A stretch of DNA of 46,899 nt from Spirochaetia bacterium (GCA_049515615.1 JBEKTX010000001.1:1-46899); one strand, 5' to 3'; shown: positions 25,580 through 37,055, counted from the stretch's first letter. Numbers and translations: made by a program. Notes: generated by a model from the letters alone, not told the origin.

Positions 25580-26590
25580 ATGCGCCTCTTGCGTCCCCTT
25601 CCTCTTTTTCCGGCCATGATCTCCCCGGTTGAAATACACGCAAAAACAGTGCTTCGCAGGATGAGGAGAATCGACCCTTGGTTTCTTGCCGGGTTCGGCA
25701 TGAACCTCTACCGGGGGTGCGGGCACGACTGCGCCTACTGCGACGGGCGCGCCGAGAAGTACCAGGTGGGGGGGAGCTTCGGATCGGACGTCCAGGTCAA
25801 GGTGAACGCGGTCGAGGTGCTCCGGAGGGAGCTGGGCCTTGAATCCGCCGGGCAGGCGGAGTTTTGGCCCGGCGCGCGGCAATGGCATGGAGGGTTCGTC
25901 CTGCTGGGCGGGGGCGTGGGGGACAGCTACCAGCCCGCCGAAATGCACTACGGTCTGGCGCGCAGTGTCCTGGAGCTCTTCGCCGAGCACGCGATTCCCG
26001 TGCACGTGCTCACCAAGTCCACGCTCGTCATGCGTGACGTGGATGTCCTGCAGCGTATCGCGCGCTCCGCGGGGGCATTGGTGAGCTTCAGCCTGTCATC
26101 GGCGGATGACTCGCTTTCCTCCATCTTCGAGCCCGGAGCGGCGGCGCCTTCGGAAAGGCTTCGCGCCCTGGAGGCCCTGAGAAATCACGGCATCAATGCG
26201 GGCGTCTTCCTCGTGCCGGTCCTCCCCTTCATCACCGATGGCGCGGAATCACTGGATGCGAGCGTGGCGGCAGCAGCCTCGGCGGGAGCGCTGTACGTGG
26301 TGTTCGGCGGAATGACCCTCAAGCCGGGGAGGCAGAAGGACCACTACCTGGAGACGCTGGAGCGTGTGAGACCCGATCTCGTCCCGCAATGCCGCGATCT
26401 GTACGCCGCGCCGATGGGGGCATACTCCACCGGCATCAACAGGTCCTTTGCCCTGGCCGCGCGGCGCCATGCCATGCCGATCCGCATCCCCCTCGCGCTT
26501 GCCCCGGAGGTGCTGGATAGCCAGGAAACGCGCGAGATGCGCGCCGCATATTCGAAGGCGGAACGGGAGATGCGCCGCTACCTCGCCTGA
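25580..26590 (+). CDS. radical SAM protein, SPL/'DNA repair photolyase'-like family
   Basis: CX3CX2C cluster motif NLYRGCGHDCAYCDG close to the N-terminus. About 330 aa. An alternative start is the ATG at 25616 (MISPVEIHAKTVL). Confidence 0.75.
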   Translation: MRLLRPLPLFPAMISPVEIHAKTVLRRMRRIDPWFLAGFGMNLYRGCGHDCAYCDGRAEKYQVGGSFGSDVQVKVNAVEVLRRELGLESAGQAEFWPGARQWHGGFVLLGGGVGDSYQPAEMHYGLARSVLELFAEHAIPVHVLTKSTLVMRDVDVLQRIARSAGALVSFSLSSADDSLSSIFEPGAAAPSERLRALEALRNHGINAGVFLVPVLPFITDGAESLDASVAAAASAGALYVVFGGMTLKPGRQKDHYLETLERVRPDLVPQCRDLYAAPMGAYSTGINRSFALAARRHAMPIRIPLALAPEVLDSQETREMRAAYSKAEREMRRYLA

Positions 26591-27102
26591 TTTCCGATGA
26601 TCGCGATGATCCGGGGAATCACGCTGGCGGAGAAAAGACGTCTGCCCGTCACCACGTGGAGCACCGCGGCGATGGCGATCAGAAGGAGCACGACGTTGCG
26701 CGGGATCGGCGCCTCGAGCCCGCCGACGAGCAGGCCCGAGAGTAGGAATGCCGCGCCGCCCGCCCCGGCGAGGAGCACGAGAGACACCGCCCAGCCCGCC
26801 GCGACCCCGGGACCGCCCCCGAACAGGCGCGCCTCGATGTCGAATCCGAAACGCAAACCCGCGCTGCACGCCAGCATGATCACGGCAAGGACGCTCACGG
26901 CGATGCGCAAGGGCAGCCGGGCACGTTCCCTTGCCTGCGCGATTCCCATGCAGGCGGCAATGATGACGAGCAGATCAATTGACGGGAGAAGAACCGAGGC
27001 GAGGGGCGAAGAGAGAGAGAAACCCGGCAGGTTCATCAGGATGTCGAACAGGAGAAGCCCGGCCAGCAACAGCAGCGCAGGAAGCGCGCGCGGGGTCCTC
27101 AT
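26578..27102 (-). CDS. small polytopic membrane protein, unknown function
   Basis: 174 aa with about 5 hydrophobic segments (LLLLAGLLLFDIL, LLVIIAACMGIA, VSVLAVIMLACSA, WAVSLVLLAGAGGAAFLLSGLLV, VVLLLIAIAAVL). The ATG lies 3 nt after the GNAT stop. Confidence 0.55.
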   Translation of the reverse strand: MRTPRALPALLLLAGLLLFDILMNLPGFSLSSPLASVLLPSIDLLVIIAACMGIAQARERARLPLRIAVSVLAVIMLACSAGLRFGFDIEARLFGGGPGVAAGWAVSLVLLAGAGGAAFLLSGLLVGGLEAPIPRNVVLLLIAIAAVLHVVTGRRLFSASVIPRIIAIIGNQAR

Positions 27103-27105
27103 CCC

Positions 27106-27609
27106 TCATCGAGCAGGGGCGCGAAGGATCTTCAGGTACATCGCTTTCGCGTCACCAGGCGCATAGAAGTCTTCCAACTCGGCGATCTGGGAATAGCCCT
27201 TTGCCAGGTAGAAGGCGCGCGTGGGAGTGTACAGCGGCCTGGAGGAAGTCTCGATGTACACCCGTGTGCCGCCGTATGTGGCGATTGCCTCCTCGGTCTG
27301 CTCGAGGAGCTGTGTGCCCAGTCCCCTGCCCCGGAAGTCCCCCGAGACCACGATCCAGTACAGGTCATAGCTCTCCTTCGTGCACGCAATCGGCCCGAAG
27401 CTCGTGTAACCGACCGTTCGGCCGTCCTGCTCGGCGAACAGGAAATGGTACCCGCAGCGCGGCCCCTTGGCCAGGCGGTCCTCGACGAGCTCGACAGCGG
27501 TGTCCACCTCTTCGGGGTAGAAAAAGCCCGTCGACTCGGTGATCTGCCGGACCGCCGCGAGGTCTTTCTCCGCGACGGCGCTGCGGAACGCGATCCTGGT
27601 TGTGTTCAT
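27106..27609 (-). CDS. GNAT family N-acetyltransferase
   Basis: ATG at 27609 (MNTTRIAFRS), ATGA overlap with the ATP-grasp stop. Acetyl-CoA motif A: WIVVSGDFRGRGLGTQLLEQTEE. Confidence 0.85.
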   Translation of the reverse strand: MNTTRIAFRSAVAEKDLAAVRQITESTGFFYPEEVDTAVELVEDRLAKGPRCGYHFLFAEQDGRTVGYTSFGPIACTKESYDLYWIVVSGDFRGRGLGTQLLEQTEEAIATYGGTRVYIETSSRPLYTPTRAFYLAKGYSQIAELEDFYAPGDAKAMYLKILRAPAR

Positions 27610-28637
27610 TCCATGTTCTCCTGGCGGCATTTGCGGCCGCTCCTGCTTGTGGCTTCTGCAACGATGCGTCGCACGACTTCTTCCATTGAAAGCCCGACAT
27701 GTCCCGCGGCCGCCATGAAACCGGCGTCCGGTGAGATGCATGGATTCGTGTTGATTTCCAGGACCCATGGGCGGCCTGCGCCATCCACGCGGAAATCAAC
27801 CCGCGCGTACCCGCGCAGCTCGAATGCCTTCCAGCACTCCCTGCTCATGGATATCAAGGTCTGGAGCAAACGCCCATCCTCCAATGGAAAATCGAACCTG
27901 CGGGGTGTGCTGCCGTATTCGAATGACCCTTCATCCCACTTGGCCTTGTAGCCCACCATTTTCGGCTTGCCCTCGGGGTAGCCGACGAACTCTATCTCTG
28001 AGGGCGGGAGACTCTGGGGCTCTCCGTCGGCCGTGCCGCCCAGCAGAGCGAGGTTGAACTCCCGGCCCTCGATGTACCGCTCCACGAACAAGCACTCGAT
28101 TCGTTCGCCGCGGGTCCGGCGCGAAATCTCTTCCGCCAGGGCTGCCTGAGTGACGGCCACTGAGCCGTCCTCCAATCCAACCGACGCGTGTTCCCACACC
28201 GATTTCACGATCCACGGCGGCGGGAATTGCGGCGCGGCGCGCACGGAGTGGGCGGCCGGCGTCCACGGCGGCGTGTCGATTCCGGCTGCCTGGAGAATCT
28301 TCTTCGCGAGCAGCTTCTGGGAAGTGAGCAGAATCGCCTCGGCGGATGCGCCCGTGTAGGGGATGCCCAGGCTGTCGAGGAGCATCGGGGCCAGGTGGAT
28401 CATGCTGCCCCTGCCGTCGATGGTTTCCGCTAGATTGAAGGCGATGAGCGGCCGCTGTGCGCGCAGCAGCTCTGCTGCATCTCCCAGGTTCATCGTGATC
28501 GGCACGTCCAAGGTCCGATACCCCAGGGTCCGCAGAGTTGAGCTGATGGCTTCCGCCTGGACGAGAACGTCCTTCTCATCGGCGGATGCGGACGCCGGAA
28601 CGCGGCCGTGCACGATGGCGACGGAGGGAAGGCTCAT
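27606..28637 (-). CDS. ATP-grasp enzyme, D-alanine--D-alanine ligase-like family
   Basis: ATG at 28637 (MSLPSVAIVHG). GIPYTG, KLLAKKILQAAGIDTPPW, PWIVKSVWEHASVGL, YIEGREFNLALLG, GYARVDFRVDGAGRPWVLEINTNPCIS. Lacks the SxEHEVS N-terminal signature of housekeeping Ddl. Confidence 0.85.
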   Translation of the reverse strand: MSLPSVAIVHGRVPASASADEKDVLVQAEAISSTLRTLGYRTLDVPITMNLGDAAELLRAQRPLIAFNLAETIDGRGSMIHLAPMLLDSLGIPYTGASAEAILLTSQKLLAKKILQAAGIDTPPWTPAAHSVRAAPQFPPPWIVKSVWEHASVGLEDGSVAVTQAALAEEISRRTRGERIECLFVERYIEGREFNLALLGGTADGEPQSLPPSEIEFVGYPEGKPKMVGYKAKWDEGSFEYGSTPRRFDFPLEDGRLLQTLISMSRECWKAFELRGYARVDFRVDGAGRPWVLEINTNPCISPDAGFMAAAGHVGLSMEEVVRRIVAEATSRSGRKCRQENME

Positions 28638-28683
28638 GCGGAAAAAAGCGCCGCGCCCTTCGAGGGAGCGGCGCGGTTCTTTC

Positions 28684-29997
28684 TCATCCGGCTCGCTCTT
28701 TTGCGGCTCCGGGGGGATCCGGGTAGCGGAAGTGCAGCCCCTGGTAGTTGCAGAGCACCAGATCATCGCCGTCCCTGCCGACGAGGTACTCCGGCAGCAG
28801 GGGAATCTTGCCGCCGCCCCCGGGGGCGTCGATTACGTACGTGGGCACCGCGTAGCCCGAGGTGTGCCCGCGCAGGCCCTGGATGATCTCCAGCCCCTTC
28901 TGCACCGGGGTCCGGAAATGGCTCGAGCCGAAGATCGGGTCGCATTGGTAGAGGTAGTAGGGCTTCACGCGCGCCTTCAGCAGGCCGTGCATAAGCCTCT
29001 TCATCGTGTCCACGGTATCGTTGATGCCCGCCAGCAGGACGGTCTGGCTGCCCAGTGGGATCCCCGCATCCGCCAGGCGCGCGCATGCCTCAATTGTTTC
29101 CGGCGTGAGCTCGTCCGGGTGCGTGAAGTGGATGCTGACCCACAGTGGATGCGAGCGCTTCAGGACCCGGGCGAGAGAGGTCGTGATTCGCTGGGGCATG
29201 ACGACCGGGACCTTCGTTCCGATGCGGAGGAACTCCACGTGCGGGATCCTGCGCAGACGGGAGAGCAGCCAGTCCAGCTTCTCATCGGAAAGAGTGAGCG
29301 GATCACCGCCCGAGAGCAGGACGTCACGCACCTCGGTGTGCGCATCGATGTACGCGATTGCCTGCTCCCACTGTGACTGGAAGAAGATGCTGTTGTTGTC
29401 GGGGTTTTCCACCATGCGCGACCGCGTACAGTAGCGGCAGTTGGACGCGCACGAATTGGCCACCAGGAACAGCACCCGGTCGGGGTAGCGGTGCACGATC
29501 CCGGGCACCGGGCTGTCCTTTTCCTCTCCGAGAGGATCCTCCGCTTCTCCGGGGACGCGGAGATACTCGTCGGTCACGGGGATCATCGTCCTTCGGAGCG
29601 GCTGCTCGGCATTGTCCGCATCAAGAAGGCTGAGATAGTACGGCGTGATGGCGAAGGGCAGGGGGCCCGTGTGCCTCTGGACGGCCGTGCGCTCATCGTC
29701 GGTCAGCCGCACCACCCGTTCCAGGGCCTCGAGGGAGCGCACGCGGTTTCGGAGCTGCCAGCGCCAGTCGCACCACTCGGCCGGGGTGGCCAGCGGGAAG
29801 TGGCGTGCGCGGAACTCTTCTGATCGTGTGGAGGCAGGGAACCTGGAGGGAACGGTCGGTGGTTTCTTGATGGACCTGGAAAAGGAAGTGAAGGAAGGGA
29901 TCGTAGCCCGGATGCCGACAAGCTCGGCAAGGTCCTGGACTACGGGCATGGTACCTGGAGGTTCTGCCTCCTCAGTGCTCTGCACCTTGGTTTCCAT
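28684..29997 (-). CDS. kamA: KamA-family radical SAM aminomutase (lysine 2,3-aminomutase-like)
   Basis: CX3CX2C CASNCRYCTRS; SGGDPL; GINDTVDTMKRL; PYYLYQCDPIFGSSHFRTP; PLP-site PGGGGKIPL. About 100-aa N-terminal region before the conserved core. Confidence 0.9.
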   Translation of the reverse strand: METKVQSTEEAEPPGTMPVVQDLAELVGIRATIPSFTSFSRSIKKPPTVPSRFPASTRSEEFRARHFPLATPAEWCDWRWQLRNRVRSLEALERVVRLTDDERTAVQRHTGPLPFAITPYYLSLLDADNAEQPLRRTMIPVTDEYLRVPGEAEDPLGEEKDSPVPGIVHRYPDRVLFLVANSCASNCRYCTRSRMVENPDNNSIFFQSQWEQAIAYIDAHTEVRDVLLSGGDPLTLSDEKLDWLLSRLRRIPHVEFLRIGTKVPVVMPQRITTSLARVLKRSHPLWVSIHFTHPDELTPETIEACARLADAGIPLGSQTVLLAGINDTVDTMKRLMHGLLKARVKPYYLYQCDPIFGSSHFRTPVQKGLEIIQGLRGHTSGYAVPTYVIDAPGGGGKIPLLPEYLVGRDGDDLVLCNYQGLHFRYPDPPGAAKERAG

Positions 29998-30094
29998 TTC
30001 TGCTCGGACTCCTCTATCTCATCGTTGTCTGGGAAAGGCCGCTTTCGCGCAGCGAGGACGGCGGGTCCCCTCCCTTTTCGATTCTTCGCTCCAA

Positions 30095-30123
30095 TAAATA
30101 CTACATACAAAAAACAAATGCAA
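30095..30123 (-). promoter_or_regulatory. candidate sigma-70 promoter of the kamA operon in an AT-rich island
   Basis: Minus strand reads TTGCAT (30123-30118), 17-nt spacer, TATTTA (30100-30095), with an A-tract upstream. Leaves a leader of about 90 nt. Confidence 0.4.
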
Positions 30124-30275
30124 GAGGTTTCGCGTTTTCGTCAATTTTTTTCAGCGCCACGAGGCTGCAACTCCCCAACTCCTGTCAAGTAATTTATCGG
30201 CAACTTCACCGGACGACTCTCGGACGCCTTGCCGGGCTCGCGGCGACCCTCTGAATCGGGTATGCTGTCCGCCGT

Positions 30276-31595
30276 ATGAGCAGGGATTTCCTCACTGATC
30301 TGGGCACCAGCGGCCCGGAGGGCAACAGGGCGATCCTCGTCGGCGTCGAGCTGAAGGGCGCATCAGGCGCATGGACCATGAAGGATTCTCTGGACGAGCT
30401 GGGAAGGTTGGCGGAGACGGCGGGCCTCGCCGTGGCCGGAGCCACCAGCCAGAAGCTCGCGCATCCCGACGCTCGCACTTGGATCGGCTCCGGCAAGGTC
30501 CGGGAGCTCGGGGAGCTCGTAGCGGCAAGTGATGCGCGCTATGTGCTCTTCGACGACGAGCTCTCCCCCGGACAGCAGCGGAAGCTCGAAGCGGCGCTGG
30601 GGGACGGGATACGGGTCATCGACCGCACCCGGCTGATCCTCGATATCTTCAGCCAGCACGCACAGAGCCGGGAGGGCAAGCTGCAGGTCGAGCTCGCGCA
30701 GTACCAGTACCTGCTCCCGCGGCTCGCCGGCATGCGGGTCGGTCTCTCCCAGCAGACCGGCGGCACGGGGGCCGGGGCCGTAGGGCTCAGGGGGCCCGGG
30801 GAAACGCAGCTCGAGCTGGACCGCAGGCAGGCGCGGCGGCGGATCGCCGTCCTCAAGGCGGGGCTGGAAGAGGTGAGGCTGCAGCGGAGCCAGCACCGCG
30901 AGCGCAGGGAGAGCTCAGGTCCCCCGGTGGCGGCCCTTGTCGGCTACACCAACGCGGGAAAGAGCTCCCTGCTGAACGCGATCACTGGCGCCGGCGTGCT
31001 CGTTCAGGACAAGCTCTTTGCCACCCTGGACCCCATTACCCGGCGGCTTGCCCTGCCGGGCGGCAGGGAAGCCCTCCTCACCGACACGGTCGGATTCATC
31101 AGGAAGATCCCGCACGATCTGGTAGCCGCGTTCCGCGCCACGCTGGAAGGAATCGAGGAAGCCTCCCTGATCCTGCACGTCGTGGACAGCTCGCACCCCC
31201 ACCCCGCGGAGCAGATCGCGGCCGTGGACGAAGTACTGGCCGGCCTGGATCTCTCCTCGACCCCGCGTCTCCTGGTGTGGAACAAGATCGACCTCCTCCC
31301 CGGTGCGGGTGCGCCCCTGCTTCTTCACGGCAGGCATGAGCTTTCGCTTGCCGTCAGCGCGCGGACCGGGAAGGGCGTCCCCGAGCTGCTCGTGAAAATC
31401 GAGATGATTCTGCAGGAAGGCCTGGTGGAGGTCCACCTGGCGCTCCCTTACGACCGCTATGACCTCGTGAAGCTGGTCTACGAACAGGGATCCGTCACGA
31501 CGAAGCAGGACGGGCCGGAAGGGGTGATCCTCCGGGCCCTCGTTCCCTCGGCCCTCGCGAGGATGCTCGAGCCTTTCGCCGCGAAAGACGACTAA
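30276..31595 (+). CDS. hflX: GTPase HflX
   Basis: HflX N-domain (IFSQHAQSREGKLQVELAQYQYLLPRL). G1 GYTNAGKSSLLNAITG, G3 DTVGF, G4 NKID. Confidence 0.92.
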   Translation: MSRDFLTDLGTSGPEGNRAILVGVELKGASGAWTMKDSLDELGRLAETAGLAVAGATSQKLAHPDARTWIGSGKVRELGELVAASDARYVLFDDELSPGQQRKLEAALGDGIRVIDRTRLILDIFSQHAQSREGKLQVELAQYQYLLPRLAGMRVGLSQQTGGTGAGAVGLRGPGETQLELDRRQARRRIAVLKAGLEEVRLQRSQHRERRESSGPPVAALVGYTNAGKSSLLNAITGAGVLVQDKLFATLDPITRRLALPGGREALLTDTVGFIRKIPHDLVAAFRATLEGIEEASLILHVVDSSHPHPAEQIAAVDEVLAGLDLSSTPRLLVWNKIDLLPGAGAPLLLHGRHELSLAVSARTGKGVPELLVKIEMILQEGLVEVHLALPYDRYDLVKLVYEQGSVTTKQDGPEGVILRALVPSALARMLEPFAAKDD

Positions 31596-34285
31596 CCGAC
31601 GGCCGCCCGGCGGCGGTAGTCCGCGTACGAGATGAAAGCTCCGCCCTTGTCGATGAACACGACCAGATTGCGCGACCGCTTCGCGGCGTACAGTGCCCGG
31701 TCCGCCTTCTCCACAGCCTTCTGCAAATCGGGGATACCGCCAATGTCGGCGACGCCGATTGAGAGAGTGGAGCAGGGCTGGCCGCCGTCCTTCCCCACCT
31801 TGCGGACGTCCTGCATGCCTTCGCGCGCGAGCACCTTTGTCTCCTGGGAAAAACGAAGCCGCTCGGCGAGAATGATCCCCGTGTGCATGTCGGAGGGGAC
31901 CACGATGAGCATTTCCTCCCCCCCGTAGCGCACTGCGAGGTCTCCCTCGCGGATGTTGTCCAGGATCATCGCCGCCGTCGCCTTCAACACCTCGTCGCCT
32001 CGGGAGTGGCCCAGCGAATCGTTCACCCACTTGAAGTGGTCGATGTCGATCATCATCAGGGAGAGCGGAGTGCGGGACCCGCGCAGCCGCTGGAGCTTCC
32101 GGGGCAGCTCTTTCAGGAAGTAGTCCTTGTTCTTCAGGCCGGTGAGAGCATCGAGGTATTGCCCGGGAAACTGTTCCCCAAGTGTCTCCTGCAGGGACAG
32201 CTGCGCATCCCTCGCGCCCACCGCCCTCTCCTTGTTCCAGAGCGCATGTTCCCCCGAGGCGGCGTTGACGACCCCATGGCCTGCCAGGGCGGCGGGGCTC
32301 CTCTGGTCGTTCAGAAGGGCATCGTACAGGTATGCCACGCCCCGAAACACATCGAGAAAAGTGACCTGTGCCTTCTGGGGAATGGCCAGGACGGTCTCAC
32401 GGAACCGGGCCTCGATCCATCGCCTCACCTGCCGGGTGACGGGGTGGTAGTCCACGGTTCCCGGCTTTGCCGCGGCCACAAAGTCCACGATGCCCTTCGC
32501 CGCGAGATCCATCATGACTTTCCTGCTCACGGGGTCCCCGGCGCCGAGGGCGTTCTGATTGAGCACCATCCCGGCCTCTGTAAGAAGCGTGGAAAGCCGG
32601 GATGCCAGCTCGTAGAGCTTCGGTCCCTCGACGTGCACCCGCTCCGTGATGATGTGGCCGAACCCCCTGATGGCCGTATTGCGCAGCTGGTTTATCCGCT
32701 CCGCGATGGTGCGGGCTCGCTGGCTTTCCTTGAACTGTGCCGCATACCGGGGATCACCCGCGGTCTCCCGCGCGTACTCCCGGACCGCGTCCAGGTACGG
32801 CTCGAAAACCCGCGGGAACGCGTCCCGCCATTCGTCTCTCAGCGCGACCAGGTCCGCGTGCAGCCCCTCGCGGGCAACCAGTCTTTCAAGCGCCGCGGGA
32901 TCCAGTGAAGAGAGCATGTCGTCGAGGAGGGAATGGAACACGAGCACGAGGCCCATGATGTCCTGCGCGGACATGCTCTCCAGCTCCACCGCCCGGGCCT
33001 CGAACACCGGCGAGTGCCGGAAGATCCTGTTCGAGAAATACGGCAGGACGAACTCACCTTGCTCGATTCGCTCCACCCCGGACTCGGGGAAAAGGGAGGC
33101 CAGCATGGAGAGGGTTCCCTCGAATCGGACGCTGAACTTCTCCACCTTTTCCTGCTCCAGCCGGGCAAGCTCGCGGGCCTGTCTCTCCTGGAGCTCCTTC
33201 TCGCGAAGCTCGCGCATCCTGCGCTGCCATCCTTCCCAGGTGAGGATGTCGCCGTCCTGGATGCCGAGGAACTGGCGCACGGCGGCCGTCTTCATGGGCG
33301 TGCTGTCCTCCTCCGTGTAGAATGCGGCGATCATCTTCAAGAGTGCGGGGTACAGCTCGTGGGCGAACCGGCCCAGGTTCTGGAGGCAGGCGCGGAACAG
33401 CCCCTCCGCCTCCAGCATCTCCCCCGCCGTGCGGGGGCCCGGGGTGATCTTCAGATTCACGTCTCGGGCGATGTTGTAGAGCAGCACGAGCTTCTCCTGC
33501 TCAACCGAGTCGGTGATGGCGATGAGGCGGCAGCCGTCCTTCACCACGCGCGCGAGGTCGGAAACCCGGACCGGCGCGCGCGTGCGGAGGTCGGTGCCGA
33601 GGTACTCAAGGCTCTTTCGCAGCATGTCGTAGGGCTGCGTGAAGACTGAAAAATACTCCACGGCAAAGGGCTCGCGTGCGCGCAGCTCCGCCAGGACAAG
33701 CTCCGCCTTGCGCGACGGGGCCCCGCCGCCCCGCTGTCCCATGAGACGTCCGGCGCTCTCACGAAGGGCATCGAGGGTGTCGATGAAAGACAAGTGGAAG
33801 GGGTTTCCCGTACGAAACCCTCTCTCGTCGGCCAGCAGCGCAAGGAGCGCCCTGCTGACGAGGTCCGGCCGCGACTGGTCGAAGCGGCTCATGAAGTCAT
33901 CGAAGCGCTGGGGCAGGCGCGTGATGAGGTAGCCGTTCCTGTACGCGTAACGATTGATGCGCCGCCGCAGCCACTGCGGGATGGTGGGCAGCCAGTCGAC
34001 AGCGCGCTTGCCCAGCTCGATTTCCGAGGCCGAAGAGGCAGGCACTTCGCGAGCGGAGGCGGCCGGCGCCTCGCTTCCCTGGGGCGCGAGCGCGGCGCGG
34101 CGGCGTTCCATTTCCCGCAGGGACTTCATCCGCTCCACTGCGGCCCGGGACCTCTTTTTCGCCTCCTCCTCTCCGTATCCCTTCTCTCGGAGGCTTCGGT
34201 AGACCTTTTGTATCTCCTCCGCGGGGACGCCCTGGCGCAGGAGTCCGTCCTTGAAAGTTGCTTTTTCCTTGTCCATGGAAGACAT
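31592..34285 (-). CDS. cytoplasmic diguanylate cyclase (GGDEF domain, GGEEM variant) with ~700-aa uncharacterised N-terminal region
   Basis: C-terminal LTGLKNKDYF...MIDIDHFKWVNDSLGHSRGDEVL...RYGGEEMLIV...ADRALYAAKRSRN. The start is ambiguous (ATG at 34303, 34285 or 34276). I prefer 34285 because the 34303 ATG lies inside a TGCTATATT extended -10-like element. Confidence 0.85.
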   Translation of the reverse strand: MSSMDKEKATFKDGLLRQGVPAEEIQKVYRSLREKGYGEEEAKKRSRAAVERMKSLREMERRRAALAPQGSEAPAASAREVPASSASEIELGKRAVDWLPTIPQWLRRRINRYAYRNGYLITRLPQRFDDFMSRFDQSRPDLVSRALLALLADERGFRTGNPFHLSFIDTLDALRESAGRLMGQRGGGAPSRKAELVLAELRAREPFAVEYFSVFTQPYDMLRKSLEYLGTDLRTRAPVRVSDLARVVKDGCRLIAITDSVEQEKLVLLYNIARDVNLKITPGPRTAGEMLEAEGLFRACLQNLGRFAHELYPALLKMIAAFYTEEDSTPMKTAAVRQFLGIQDGDILTWEGWQRRMRELREKELQERQARELARLEQEKVEKFSVRFEGTLSMLASLFPESGVERIEQGEFVLPYFSNRIFRHSPVFEARAVELESMSAQDIMGLVLVFHSLLDDMLSSLDPAALERLVAREGLHADLVALRDEWRDAFPRVFEPYLDAVREYARETAGDPRYAAQFKESQRARTIAERINQLRNTAIRGFGHIITERVHVEGPKLYELASRLSTLLTEAGMVLNQNALGAGDPVSRKVMMDLAAKGIVDFVAAAKPGTVDYHPVTRQVRRWIEARFRETVLAIPQKAQVTFLDVFRGVAYLYDALLNDQRSPAALAGHGVVNAASGEHALWNKERAVGARDAQLSLQETLGEQFPGQYLDALTGLKNKDYFLKELPRKLQRLRGSRTPLSLMMIDIDHFKWVNDSLGHSRGDEVLKATAAMILDNIREGDLAVRYGGEEMLIVVPSDMHTGIILAERLRFSQETKVLAREGMQDVRKVGKDGGQPCSTLSIGVADIGGIPDLQKAVEKADRALYAAKRSRNLVVFIDKGGAFISYADYRRRAAVG

Positions 34286-34330
34286 ATGAGTACAATATAG
34301 CATCCGGGACGCCGTGGCATCCGGTGTGTT

Positions 34331-34750: not shown

Positions 34751-34852
34751 GCCATCGGTGTAGCGGCGGACTGCCGGCGCGTCAAGCTTGAAACCGCGCG
34801 TGTTGAACGACGCAAAGGGCGTTCGAAGCCCAGGCCCCGAGCGCAGGAAAAA

Positions 34853-34868
34853 CATACATTCGTGTATG
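34853..34868. promoter_or_regulatory. 16-bp palindrome, candidate enhancer (UAS) for the sigma-54 promoter
   Basis: CATACA-ttcg-TGTATG at 34853-34868, about 140-150 bp upstream of the -24/-12 element, in a long (~390 bp) lower-GC intergenic region. Confidence 0.3.
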
Positions 34869-35005
34869 GCGACATGGCATTTCAGACATTCATGTAGCTC
34901 AAGCGGAATTGCGGCTTTTCTGGTCTTCAAGGGGTGTCTTTTCTATTTCCTTTTCTCTCAAAAACTTACGTTCCAGCAAGGGATTCTTAAGGGTTTCTTA
35001 ATCTT

Positions 35006-35021
35006 TGGCATGGACCTTGCT
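35006..35021 (+). promoter_or_regulatory. sigma-54 (-24/-12) promoter
   Basis: TGGCAT-ggacc-TTGCT, compared with consensus TGGCAC-N5-TTGCW. GG and GC have the exact 10-nt spacing. Located about 125 nt upstream of the permease ATG. Confidence 0.6.
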
Positions 35022-35144
35022 TTTCACTCTCATATTCATTTCGCTTTCGCCCCAGGAGTGGGCTCCGAGAAATGGAAAAAGCCGCAGGAGCGGCAGGGGA
35101 TCGGCCGGAAGATCCCCAACTTCCTTGCAAAGGAGATGCAAGTC

Positions 35145-37055
35145 ATGGCTGATATTACAATGACCTCGCCTCTGGTGAAGCCCAAGCTCGGGATGATGGG
35201 CGCCAGCATGAACGCAATGGCGCTCATCGCGCCAGGAGCGTTCCTCTGGATCACCTACCAGCTTCAGGCGGCAGCCACGGCGCCCAGCGGCGCGTCGGTG
35301 GCGGCTGACATCTGGGCGGGCATCGTCGTCGCGCTCGTGCTCGCGTTTCTTACCGCGATCTCCTACTCGCAGCTTGCGAAGCTGTATCCTGAGGCGGGTT
35401 TCGCCGGCGCAGTGTATTTTGCGGAAAAGGCCTTCCTCGAACGCTCGGGAGCCAGGAGAGGCGCGCCAAGCTCCATGGCCCGCATGGCAAAGCTCAGCAC
35501 GGGATGGGCGGCGCACCTGTTCTACTGGGTCTATCCAGGAGTGATGGTCGCTTTCATGGCGACCCTGATCGGGTACCTCTACAACCAGTTCACGGGAAAG
35601 AGCCTGTCCGTTCTCGAGCTGACCCTTATCGGCGTCATATTTACGATCGTGACGGGCTACATTGCCTATCGAGGGATCACCGGCTCGACCTTCACGTCGA
35701 TCGTCATCAACGTGATCCAATGGGGCTCGCTCCTCATCTTCAGCGGTCTTGCCATCTACTATCGCCTCCACAATCCGCAGGGGACAGCTGCGTGGACCTT
35801 CAGTGGCGCCTGGGACGTAGTGAAGCCTCATACGCTGAACGGAGTGCTGATACAGTCCACGATTGCCATCCTGATCCTGGTGGGCTTCGAGAGCTCCACC
35901 TCTCTGTCTGCAGAGACAAAAAACGCGAAGCGCACGATACCCAGGGCAATCATCATCGCCTTGATCATTCAGGGGCTCCTGGCGTACCTCATCGAGTATT
36001 TCGCGACGGGCACCATGATCAGCGACAAGCTCACCGGCGTCGTCGACGGCAAGACAGTCACCGGCATGGACGCGGCAGCGGCATCCGGGGCGCCAATCGG
36101 CGATCTCACCCAGCTGATCGGAAACTCCGTGCTCCATGGAATCGGCTTCGGCCTGATGATCAGCATCGCGATCACTGTGGCCATCGCGGTGATCGGCACG
36201 ACATTGAGCTGCATGAACACGGCTATGCGGATCTCCGGCGGCATGGCCGCGGACCAGGAACTGCCTTCAATGATGGGTTTCATCCACAAGAAGTTCGCCA
36301 TCCCGCACGTGGCGCTCATCGCCCTTATCATGGTGAGCGCGGTCATCGGGGCAATAGGCGTGCGCTCCGTCGTGGGCCTGACGGGCATCACCCTCGCATC
36401 GAACCTTGGCACCTTCGTGCTCTACGGGCTGACCTGCACGTGGACGATCGTCGCCTACAGGAAGAGATCTGACCACAACATCCTCCTGCACGATATCGTT
36501 CCCGCCCTCGGCGTCCTGGCCAACCTCATCATGCTGATTGCGATCGTCTACCTGTACGTGATCGGAAACGCTGATTCCAAGAACGAGGCGTACATCATGT
36601 TCGTCATCGCCGGCGGGTGGTTGATCGTTTCGATTGCCTATGTCGGTGTCACGAGCATGAGGAAGTCGTACAGCATGAAGATGATCTCGGCCATGATACG
36701 ACCCGAATCTCTCAGCGTCCTCCTGCAGGTGCTCAAAGACGAGGACCTGATACTGGGGATGACAGTGACAAAGATCAAGGGATTCGGCAGGCAGCTCGGC
36801 AAGGCGGCCGGAGCCGGGAATGGCGGCGGCGCCGGGAGCGGCGATCCGGACCTGCAGTTCACCAGCGACAGGATCTCCCTCATCCCGAAGGTCAGGGTGG
36901 ATCTCGTGGTCAACGACTGGGACGTCCCCAAGGTGATGGAGGTCATGCGGGAGGCGTTGTTCACCGGGCAGGTGGGAGACGGAAAGATCTTCGTCATGAA
37001 CGCAACGGACGCCATGAGGATCCGCACAGGGGAGAAGGGGGTGCTGGCTGTATGA
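35145..37055 (+). CDS. APC-superfamily permease fused to a C-terminal P-II (GlnB/GlnK-like) domain
   Basis: ATG at 35145, 9 nt after AAGGAG. About 12 hydrophobic segments and the APC signature region GFESSTSLSAETKNAKRTIPRAI. Residues encoded from 36675 onward (MKMISAMIRPESLSVLLQVLKDEDLILGMTVTKIKGFGRQ...FTGQVGDGKIFVMNATDAMRIRTGEKG) align end to end with P-II. The T-loop carries a Gly/Ala-rich insertion. Confidence 0.85.
   Translation: MADITMTSPLVKPKLGMMGASMNAMALIAPGAFLWITYQLQAAATAPSGASVAADIWAGIVVALVLAFLTAISYSQLAKLYPEAGFAGAVYFAEKAFLERSGARRGAPSSMARMAKLSTGWAAHLFYWVYPGVMVAFMATLIGYLYNQFTGKSLSVLELTLIGVIFTIVTGYIAYRGITGSTFTSIVINVIQWGSLLIFSGLAIYYRLHNPQGTAAWTFSGAWDVVKPHTLNGVLIQSTIAILILVGFESSTSLSAETKNAKRTIPRAIIIALIIQGLLAYLIEYFATGTMISDKLTGVVDGKTVTGMDAAAASGAPIGDLTQLIGNSVLHGIGFGLMISIAITVAIAVIGTTLSCMNTAMRISGGMAADQELPSMMGFIHKKFAIPHVALIALIMVSAVIGAIGVRSVVGLTGITLASNLGTFVLYGLTCTWTIVAYRKRSDHNILLHDIVPALGVLANLIMLIAIVYLYVIGNADSKNEAYIMFVIAGGWLIVSIAYVGVTSMRKSYSMKMISAMIRPESLSVLLQVLKDEDLILGMTVTKIKGFGRQLGKAAGAGNGGGAGSGDPDLQFTSDRISLIPKVRVDLVVNDWDVPKVMEVMREALFTGQVGDGKIFVMNATDAMRIRTGEKGVLAV

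Follow-up and report, generated by a model that had tools for sequence, protein, structure and literature searches.

A 46.9-kb contig from a Spirochaetia metagenome-assembled genome (referred to in its entirety as the window) carries on its minus strand a cassette of three enzyme genes that recurs across some ten phyla. The genes encode KamA, a lysine 2,3-aminomutase-type radical S-adenosylmethionine (SAM)/pyridoxal phosphate (PLP) enzyme (28684-29997; 437 amino acids (aa)), an ATP-grasp ligase with the fold of D-alanine--D-alanine ligase (Ddl) and belonging to a family designated ATP-grasp 2 (27606-28637; 343 aa), and a GNAT N-acetyltransferase (27106-27609; 167 aa). They are followed by a lineage-specific gene for a membrane protein (26578-27102; 174 aa). 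Coordinates and spacings of these four co-directional genes are as the first-pass annotation of the window had given them: a gap of 46 nucleotides (nt) separates kamA from the ATP-grasp gene, the ATP-grasp and GNAT genes share an ATGA overlap, and 3 nt lie between the GNAT and membrane-protein genes (TGA GGG ATG). We hold it about evenly probable that the window contains the Spirochaetia form of a widespread pathway in which the three enzymes would convert L-lysine to a cytoplasmic small molecule: an N-acetylated, amide-linked derivative of beta-lysine.

Conservation, fusions and accessory genes

Scanning a single genome for each species returned at least 332 relatives of the ATP-grasp, and the best 80 loci (13 from Spirochaetia and 67 from other groups) were compared by tblastn with the window proteins; ratios given for these loci count those with enough sequence. 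The order hflX / KamA - ATP-grasp - GNAT - membrane protein ... NUDIX is kept in the 13 Spirochaetia loci, with KamA upstream of the ATP-grasp in 12/12 and GNAT downstream of it in 10/10. Other groups have the order KamA - ATP-grasp 1 - ATP-grasp 2 - GNAT: KamA is present in 48/51 loci, ATP-grasp 1 in 47/51 and GNAT in 47/54. The second ligase of these loci is 45-53% identical to the window ATP-grasp, while ATP-grasp 1, a paralogue, is 25-30% identical. Desulfosarcina cetonica JCM 12296 (L076) is a cultured carrier of this two-ligase version. Carriers are found in about ten phyla and comprise Spirochaetota, Leptospirales, Desulfobacterota (Syntrophales and Desulfobacterales), Planctomycetota, Verrucomicrobiota, Kiritimatiellia, Lentisphaeria, Acidobacteriota, Myxococcota, Krumholzibacteriota and a few Gammaproteobacteria. 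Linkage of KamA, ATP-grasp and GNAT is thus far beyond chance.

The genes are not only adjacent but in places joined. ATP-grasp 2 and GNAT form a single polypeptide in four loci, of which three were confirmed with Pfam (L014, L053 and L060) and one consists of a 509-aa open reading frame that runs across both tblastn matches (L056); ATP-grasp 1 and ATP-grasp 2 form a single polypeptide in two others (L049 and L079). Synteny across this range of phyla, together with such Rosetta-stone fusions, shows that the three enzymes work as a unit that has been conserved, and the proposal of the first-pass annotation that the three belong to one pathway is to this extent borne out. The ancestral cassette contained two paralogous ATP-grasp ligases. 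Since the window lineage is without ATP-grasp 1 (no second ATP-grasp is encoded anywhere in the 46.9-kb window) and has an orphan membrane-protein gene, its cassette is a reduced, one-ligase version.

Two further genes are inserted into the cassette in subsets of loci. In about 20, a protein that combines a degenerate GNAT with an HDAC-type deacetylase domain (PF00850, E 1e-72) is encoded between ATP-grasp 2 and GNAT (L029, L031, L035, L041, L043, L051, L061, L075 and L076 are among them); in many cases it is continuous with the terminal GNAT, resulting in a GNAT-HDAC-GNAT arrangement. In seven, the gene between KamA and ATP-grasp 1 encodes a cysteine-rich protein (about 195 aa) whose CxxCxxCC domain scores just over the PF03692 cut-off (4421-5002 in L035, 4400-5005 in L051, 4336-4920 in L075, and four more loci). 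Beyond the cassette itself there is little constancy: when the Pfam families of 102 flanking genes were tallied, no transporter, regulator, precursor peptide or carrier protein recurred, and the commonest flanking families account for at most 8 of the 102 genes, each being local to one lineage.

Residues and folds of the encoded proteins

The KamA translation contains the radical-SAM and PLP motifs that had been noticed from the sequence (CASNCRYC, with cluster cysteines C183, C187 and C190, and PGGGGKIP, here within APGGGGKIP). Its top NCBIfam model is that of AblA (TIGR03820), for which it scores 494.7 bits (cut-off 525.4); the match spans only positions 5-362 of the 417 in the model, and the score falls short because the C-terminal tail is missing from the window protein. 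The model for the KamA subfamily (TIGR00238) was passed with 370 bits (cut-off 199). Scores for the models of glutamate 2,3-aminomutase (428 bits, cut-off 650), arginine 2,3-aminomutase (389 bits, cut-off 600) and EpmB (TIGR03821; 264.1 bits, cut-off 369.3) were all below threshold.

A more direct indication of substrate comes from alignment with the Clostridium subterminale structure 2A5H (E 7e-131). In lysine 2,3-aminomutase the epsilon-ammonium of lysine is bound by Asp293 and Asp330, positions at which glutamate 2,3-aminomutase has Lys and Asn. D353 (in YQCD), D390 (in IDAPGGGGK) and K397 of the window protein align with D293, D330 and the PLP lysine K337 of 2A5H, and the equivalents of all three, as well as the radical-SAM cysteine motif, are invariant in 56/56 cluster-linked KamAs from all phyla. 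The two aspartates had been singled out by the first-pass annotation as the positions to inspect, and because both are kept KamA is to be regarded as lysine-type and not glutamate-type. By its model score it is not EpmB; neither epmA nor efp occurs among the 102 neighbour genes of relatives or among the window genes scanned, and the latter include no ddl.

KamA differs from the clostridial enzyme at its C-terminus. The protein stops about nine residues past the aligned region and is without the zinc-binding cysteine tail; the equivalent of C268 is T328 (D, N or T among relatives). The inter-subunit zinc site, which in the C. subterminale enzyme consists of C268 together with the C-terminal Cys375, Cys377 and Cys380, is accordingly absent. 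The cluster-linked KamAs (L001-L080) likewise have no such tail. At the other end, they and the window KamA have an N-terminal extension of about 60 aa that is variable. A lysine-fermentation operon was considered and rejected: neither the window genes scanned nor the 102 flanking genes include neighbours of the kamDE, kdd or kce type.

The ATP-grasp protein has the fold of Ddl but is not Ddl, and its substrate pair probably differs from that of Ddl. The Pfam match is to the Ddl C-terminal domain (PF07478, E 5.5e-17), the best 25 of 26 NCBIfam matches comprise 24 models for Ddl/Van ligases and one weak match to argininosuccinate lyase, and the AlphaFold model (predicted local distance difference test score (pLDDT) 87) recovers Ddl structures as all of its top 50 Foldseek matches, over the full three-domain fold (TM 0.73-0.82, about 25% identity). 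The best PDB match by sequence scores 70 bits. However, the Ddl models themselves were failed by a wide margin (NF002378, 114.9 bits against a cut-off of 243; TIGR01205, 89.8 bits against 245.65).

Residues were mapped by a HMMER alignment to E. coli DdlB, by the invariant columns of 32 homologues and by an alignment of 80 sequences from across the phyla. Those kept are E15 (E21 in the window protein), K144 (K145), K215 (K233), R255 (R279), D257 (D281), E270 (E294) and N272 (N296); of these, K145, K233, D281, E294 and N296 are invariant, as is E21. Those replaced are G149 (H150), S150 (A151), Y216 (W234), G276 (C300), H280 (D304), S281 (A305) and L282 (G306), and the replacements are invariant within the ATP-grasp 2 family, which is recognizable by the signatures KSVWEHAS and NPCxSPDAGF. 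S150, Y216, S281 and L282 of DdlB belong to the D-Ala pocket. The pattern suggests that the chemistry of the enzyme (formation of an acyl-phosphate, then of an amide) is probably conserved and that the donor substrate probably still has a free ammonium group. Regarding the claim that the ATP and Mg motifs are Ddl-like while the N-terminal signature of housekeeping Ddl is lacking, the first half stands; the second does not, for the signature is degenerate and not absent, the equivalent of DdlB E15 being invariant (E21, in DEKDV). That the protein is not the housekeeping Ddl, as had been supposed, agrees with the sub-threshold scores, with the altered D-Ala pocket and with gene context: mur or fts genes adjoin the ATP-grasp gene in 0/80 loci. 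A housekeeping role was rejected on these three grounds, although databases annotate these ligases as 'D-alanine--D-alanine ligase'.

The GNAT translation matches PF00583 (48.8 bits, cut-off 20.7; E 1e-12) and contains the acetyl-CoA-binding motif RGRGLG. The only strong relative of known structure is PDB entry 2R7H (E 1.3e-38 over residues 5-158), which belongs to the same GNAT family; it comes from structural genomics, and its title, 'putative D-alanine N-acetyltransferase of GNAT family', seems to have been guessed in annotation. The AblB model gave no match at E<=0.01 in NCBIfam. Sequence comparison thus places the protein in an uncharacterised family of short acetyltransferases that is not AblB-like, in keeping with the first-pass annotation.

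The membrane protein had been predicted to span the membrane about five times and to serve as exporter or anchor of the product. The first prediction agrees with its AlphaFold model, whose secondary structure is entirely helical and includes about five long hydrophobic helices, albeit of low confidence (pLDDT 68.6). The second finds no support: the protein is an orphan without match in Pfam or NCBIfam and without a fold match in the PDB (best E 2.8), its 57 close homologues are all hypothetical proteins and likewise lack Pfam matches, and an exhaustive profile search of 1.84 billion proteins yielded 27 representative clusters. The gene is present in 10/13 Spirochaetia loci; the cassettes of all other phyla lack it.

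Putative expression signals and neighbouring genes

A promoter-like motif, TTGCAT-N14-TAGTAT, lies 5' of kamA (30098-30123, minus strand) and is its sole occurrence in the window. The corresponding block, CTTGCATTTGTTTTTT..TGTAGTAT, is invariant across 12-13 related Spirochaetia loci. A generic sigma-70 scan missed the motif because its spacer, at only 14 nt, is unusually short. The leader from this motif to kamA measures about 94 nt, which fits the promoter and leader of about 90 nt in the first-pass annotation. Two further parts of the leader are conserved: a box, GGGAGGGGACCCGCC (30060-30074, minus strand), some 25-40 nt 3' of the -10 element and with little or no variation among 12 loci, and the Shine-Dalgarno region of kamA, which is likewise invariant in related loci. 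Motif and box together possibly mark the binding site of a regulator. A riboswitch or other structured regulatory RNA in the leader is unsupported: Rfam has no family in the window at gathering score and none in 29950-30290 at E<=1, RNAalifold found 7 pairs only with zero compensatory changes, and the folding energy of the leader is not better than that of shuffled sequences (z +0.82).

The 46-nt gap that separates kamA from the ATP-grasp gene is of the length first reported but is not empty. It holds a GC-rich hairpin followed by six T residues (28642-28674, minus strand; predicted -27.6 kcal/mol), for which the scan that missed the promoter-like motif also had no entry. A hairpin is found at the equivalent position in 13/13 Spirochaetia loci, with stem sequences that differ, and a T-tract follows it in only about half of them. 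The ATG of the ATP-grasp gene stands directly 3' of the hairpin and T-tract, without a Shine-Dalgarno sequence. The hairpin may be an attenuator or a transcript stabiliser that separates expression of kamA from that of the three downstream genes, and these are probably expressed less than kamA.

On the upstream side the cassette is bordered by hflX (30276-31595), which is divergent from kamA. On the other side a radical SAM gene of the Rv2578c/PA0069 type (25580-26590, plus strand) is convergent with the membrane-protein gene and overlaps its 3' end by 13 nt; beyond it are NUDIX and OmpA-domain genes. In relatives, the Rv2578c/PA0069-like gene occurs between the membrane-protein gene and NUDIX only in some (L007, L009 and L011). 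Two other genes of the window were noted. One (34788-37052, plus strand) encodes a protein of 755 aa in which a membrane domain resembling amino-acid permeases precedes a P-II nitrogen-regulatory domain at the C-terminus, an unusual fusion of transporter and sensor; the other (31592-34303, minus strand) is a GGDEF diguanylate cyclase of 903 aa, whose N-terminal region of about 700 aa has no Pfam match at E<=1e-5.

Proposed product of the cassette and relation to known systems

Beta-lysine has four main roles in bacteria and archaea: as precursor of an osmolyte (AblAB), as donor for the modification of EF-P (EpmAB), as an intermediate of fermentation and as a building block of antibiotics. According to our hypothesis the cassette would add another. 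In a first step KamA, whose catalytic and substrate-binding residues are intact, would convert L-lysine to beta-lysine. In a second the ATP-grasp would use ATP to form an acyl-phosphate on the carboxylate of an amino acid and couple it to an amine, giving a dipeptide or isopeptide that contains beta-lysine; the step is suggested by the Ddl fold, by the retained ATP, Mg and transition-state residues and by the retained glutamate for the free ammonium of the donor. In a third the GNAT would acetylate, with acetyl-CoA, an amine that remains free. This would most likely be the epsilon-amine, given the CoA motif and the recurrence in relatives of an HDAC-type deacetylase, a type that acts on acetyl-lysine or acetylpolyamine. 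Where two paralogous ligases are present, as in other phyla, the product would probably contain one more amide bond.

Because no export or carrier genes are conserved, a soluble intracellular product is indicated. Its likeliest role, by analogy with N-epsilon-acetyl-beta-lysine and N-acetylglutaminylglutamine amide, would be that of a cytoplasmic metabolite that is compatible-solute-like or rich in nitrogen. In its widest form the hypothesis posits a phylum-spanning pathway to a new class of beta-lysine N-acetyl (iso)peptide, for example a compatible or nitrogen-rich solute of anaerobes from peat, sediment and groundwater, made by Ddl-descended ligases with a re-tooled pocket and subject in many lineages to reversible acetylation through a dedicated deacetylase of the HDAC type; this we advance tentatively and rate at somewhat less than an even chance. 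The interpretation offered by the first-pass annotation is, overall, partly supported: it holds for the three-enzyme core but not for the membrane protein, and the chemical product is one that we infer. Of the conditions named beforehand as refuting it, the three that could be addressed all turned out in its favour.

Several points weigh against the pathway proposed here. We infer the activities and the product for every member of the cassette, and the order of ligation and acetylation, like the choice of the nitrogen to be acetylated, is a guess. A few loci have ATP-grasp 2 and GNAT without an adjacent KamA (L028, L053 and L060), and beta-lysine may therefore not be an obligatory substrate of the ligase. 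The source habitats, for the most part fen, peat, freshwater sediment and groundwater, lend no specific support to an osmolyte role. The best family match of the GNAT is to RimI, a protein N-acetyltransferase, at a score below the cut-off (44 bits against 86; the other NCBIfam matches are to resistance acetyltransferases). GNAT plus HDAC is, moreover, the classic pair for reversible acetylation of lysine in proteins. Finally, a gene for Mpl (UDP-MurNAc:tripeptide ligase) stands directly 3' of the GNAT gene, on the same strand, in three mutually related loci; it is full-length in two (1664-3094 in L034 and 4818-6260 in L042; 407-418 bits, cut-off 388.7) and incomplete at the contig end in the third (2590-3432 in L044; 259 bits).

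The last three of these points would fit a cassette that modifies a macromolecule. With a protein, a lipid head group or a peptidoglycan precursor as acceptor, the ATP-grasp would then attach either beta-lysine to a carboxylate or an amino acid to beta-lysine; reversible acetylation by the GNAT (and the HDAC where present) would set charge, and anchoring or flipping of the product would, in the window lineage, fall to the membrane protein. The divergent position of hflX relative to kamA, seen in 12/12 Spirochaetia loci that include the upstream flank, and the start of the membrane-protein gene 3 nt past the end of the GNAT gene are consistent with such a role. However, the ligase has the full fold of the small-molecule enzyme Ddl and is not like RimK, LysX or TTL, no gene for a target, carrier or precursor is conserved among the 102 neighbours, the links to hflX, Mpl and the membrane protein are each confined to a single lineage, and the RimI score is far under its threshold. 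We consider modification of a macromolecule unlikely.

Still less probable, in our estimation, is that the cassette is a minimal biosynthetic cluster for a bioactive peptide of beta-lysine, an antibiotic or signal of the streptothricin kind, in which the GNAT would provide self-resistance or pro-drug acetylation, the HDAC activation and the membrane protein export. Streptothricin acetyltransferases modify the beta-amino group of beta-lysine, pairs of acetylation and deacetylation are common in pro-drug logic, and the GNAT has a weak match to the tabtoxin-resistance acetyltransferase 1GHE (E 1.6e-4). Antibiotic clusters are patchy in distribution, whereas the core of the cassette is uniform and vertically widespread (about ten phyla, and at least 332 matches at species level); no exporter, regulator or tailoring enzyme is conserved with it, and its sole membrane protein is restricted to one lineage. 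That the genes specify an ordinary pathway to N-epsilon-acetyl-beta-lysine of the ablA/ablB type, with the ATP-grasp as a passenger (for example a second D-Ala-D-Ala ligase), is in keeping with the near-threshold AblA score of KamA (494.7 bits), with the presence of a GNAT in the same operon and with the annotation of the ligase in its sources, but is highly improbable, since the ATP-grasp is the partner most tightly bound to the GNAT (the ATGA overlap and fusions in at least four lineages, the latter arguing against a passenger), scores under half of the Ddl cut-offs and has lost S150, Y216, S281 and L282, the GNAT is of a different, short family that the AblB model does not match, and the cassette of most phyla has a pair of such ligases.

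Full-text searches turned up no paper that describes a cassette of KamA, ATP-grasp and GNAT; where papers mention bacterial genes for beta-lysine, these are the ordinary ablA/ablB pair, for example in Pelobacter carbinolicus (PMC3543383). The cassette brings familiar enzyme families into a new and widely conserved combination, which nobody appears to have characterised. Should the pathway proposed here be correct, it would constitute a fifth route for beta-lysine, one that couples the aminomutase to an acetyltransferase and to dedicated ligases derived from Ddl and that is conserved in at least 332 genomes at species level. A gap in the small-molecule metabolism of many uncultured wetland and sediment anaerobes would be filled, the orphan structure 2R7H would gain a function, as would hundreds of genes now wrongly annotated as 'D-alanine--D-alanine ligase', and the Ddl scaffold would be seen re-tooled to a new substrate pair.

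Of the known systems with which the cassette can be compared, Ddl and VanA share with its ligase the three-domain ATP-grasp fold, the ATP, Mg and transition-state residues and the glutamate for the donor ammonium; they differ from it in sequence (about 25% identity), in having S150, Y216, G276, H280, S281 and L282 where it has A, W, C, D, A and G. Its gene is in no mur/fts context in the 80 loci. The AblA/AblB system resembles the cassette in that a lysine 2,3-aminomutase is followed by a GNAT in one operon, and AblA is the best model for KamA. Here, however, one or two Ddl-fold ATP-grasps stand between the two genes, and in relatives are fused to the GNAT; the window GNAT is short (167 aa) and unmatched by the AblB model, and KamA is tail-less and under the AblA cut-off.

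The Ngg/AsnO system makes N-acetylglutaminylglutamine amide by means of a bifunctional protein in which a GNAT is combined with an ATP-grasp dipeptide synthase. The analogy, a functional one, lies in the pairing of an N-acetyltransferase and an ATP-grasp peptide ligase as a unit, the two being adjacent or fused in the cassette; in Ngg such a pairing yields a small dipeptide solute that is N-acetylated. No amidotransferase, AsnO-like or other, recurs among the 102 neighbours of the cassette. In contrast to Ngg, the ATP-grasp here precedes the GNAT, the ligase is of the Ddl type, and the substrate would be supplied by a radical-SAM aminomutase.

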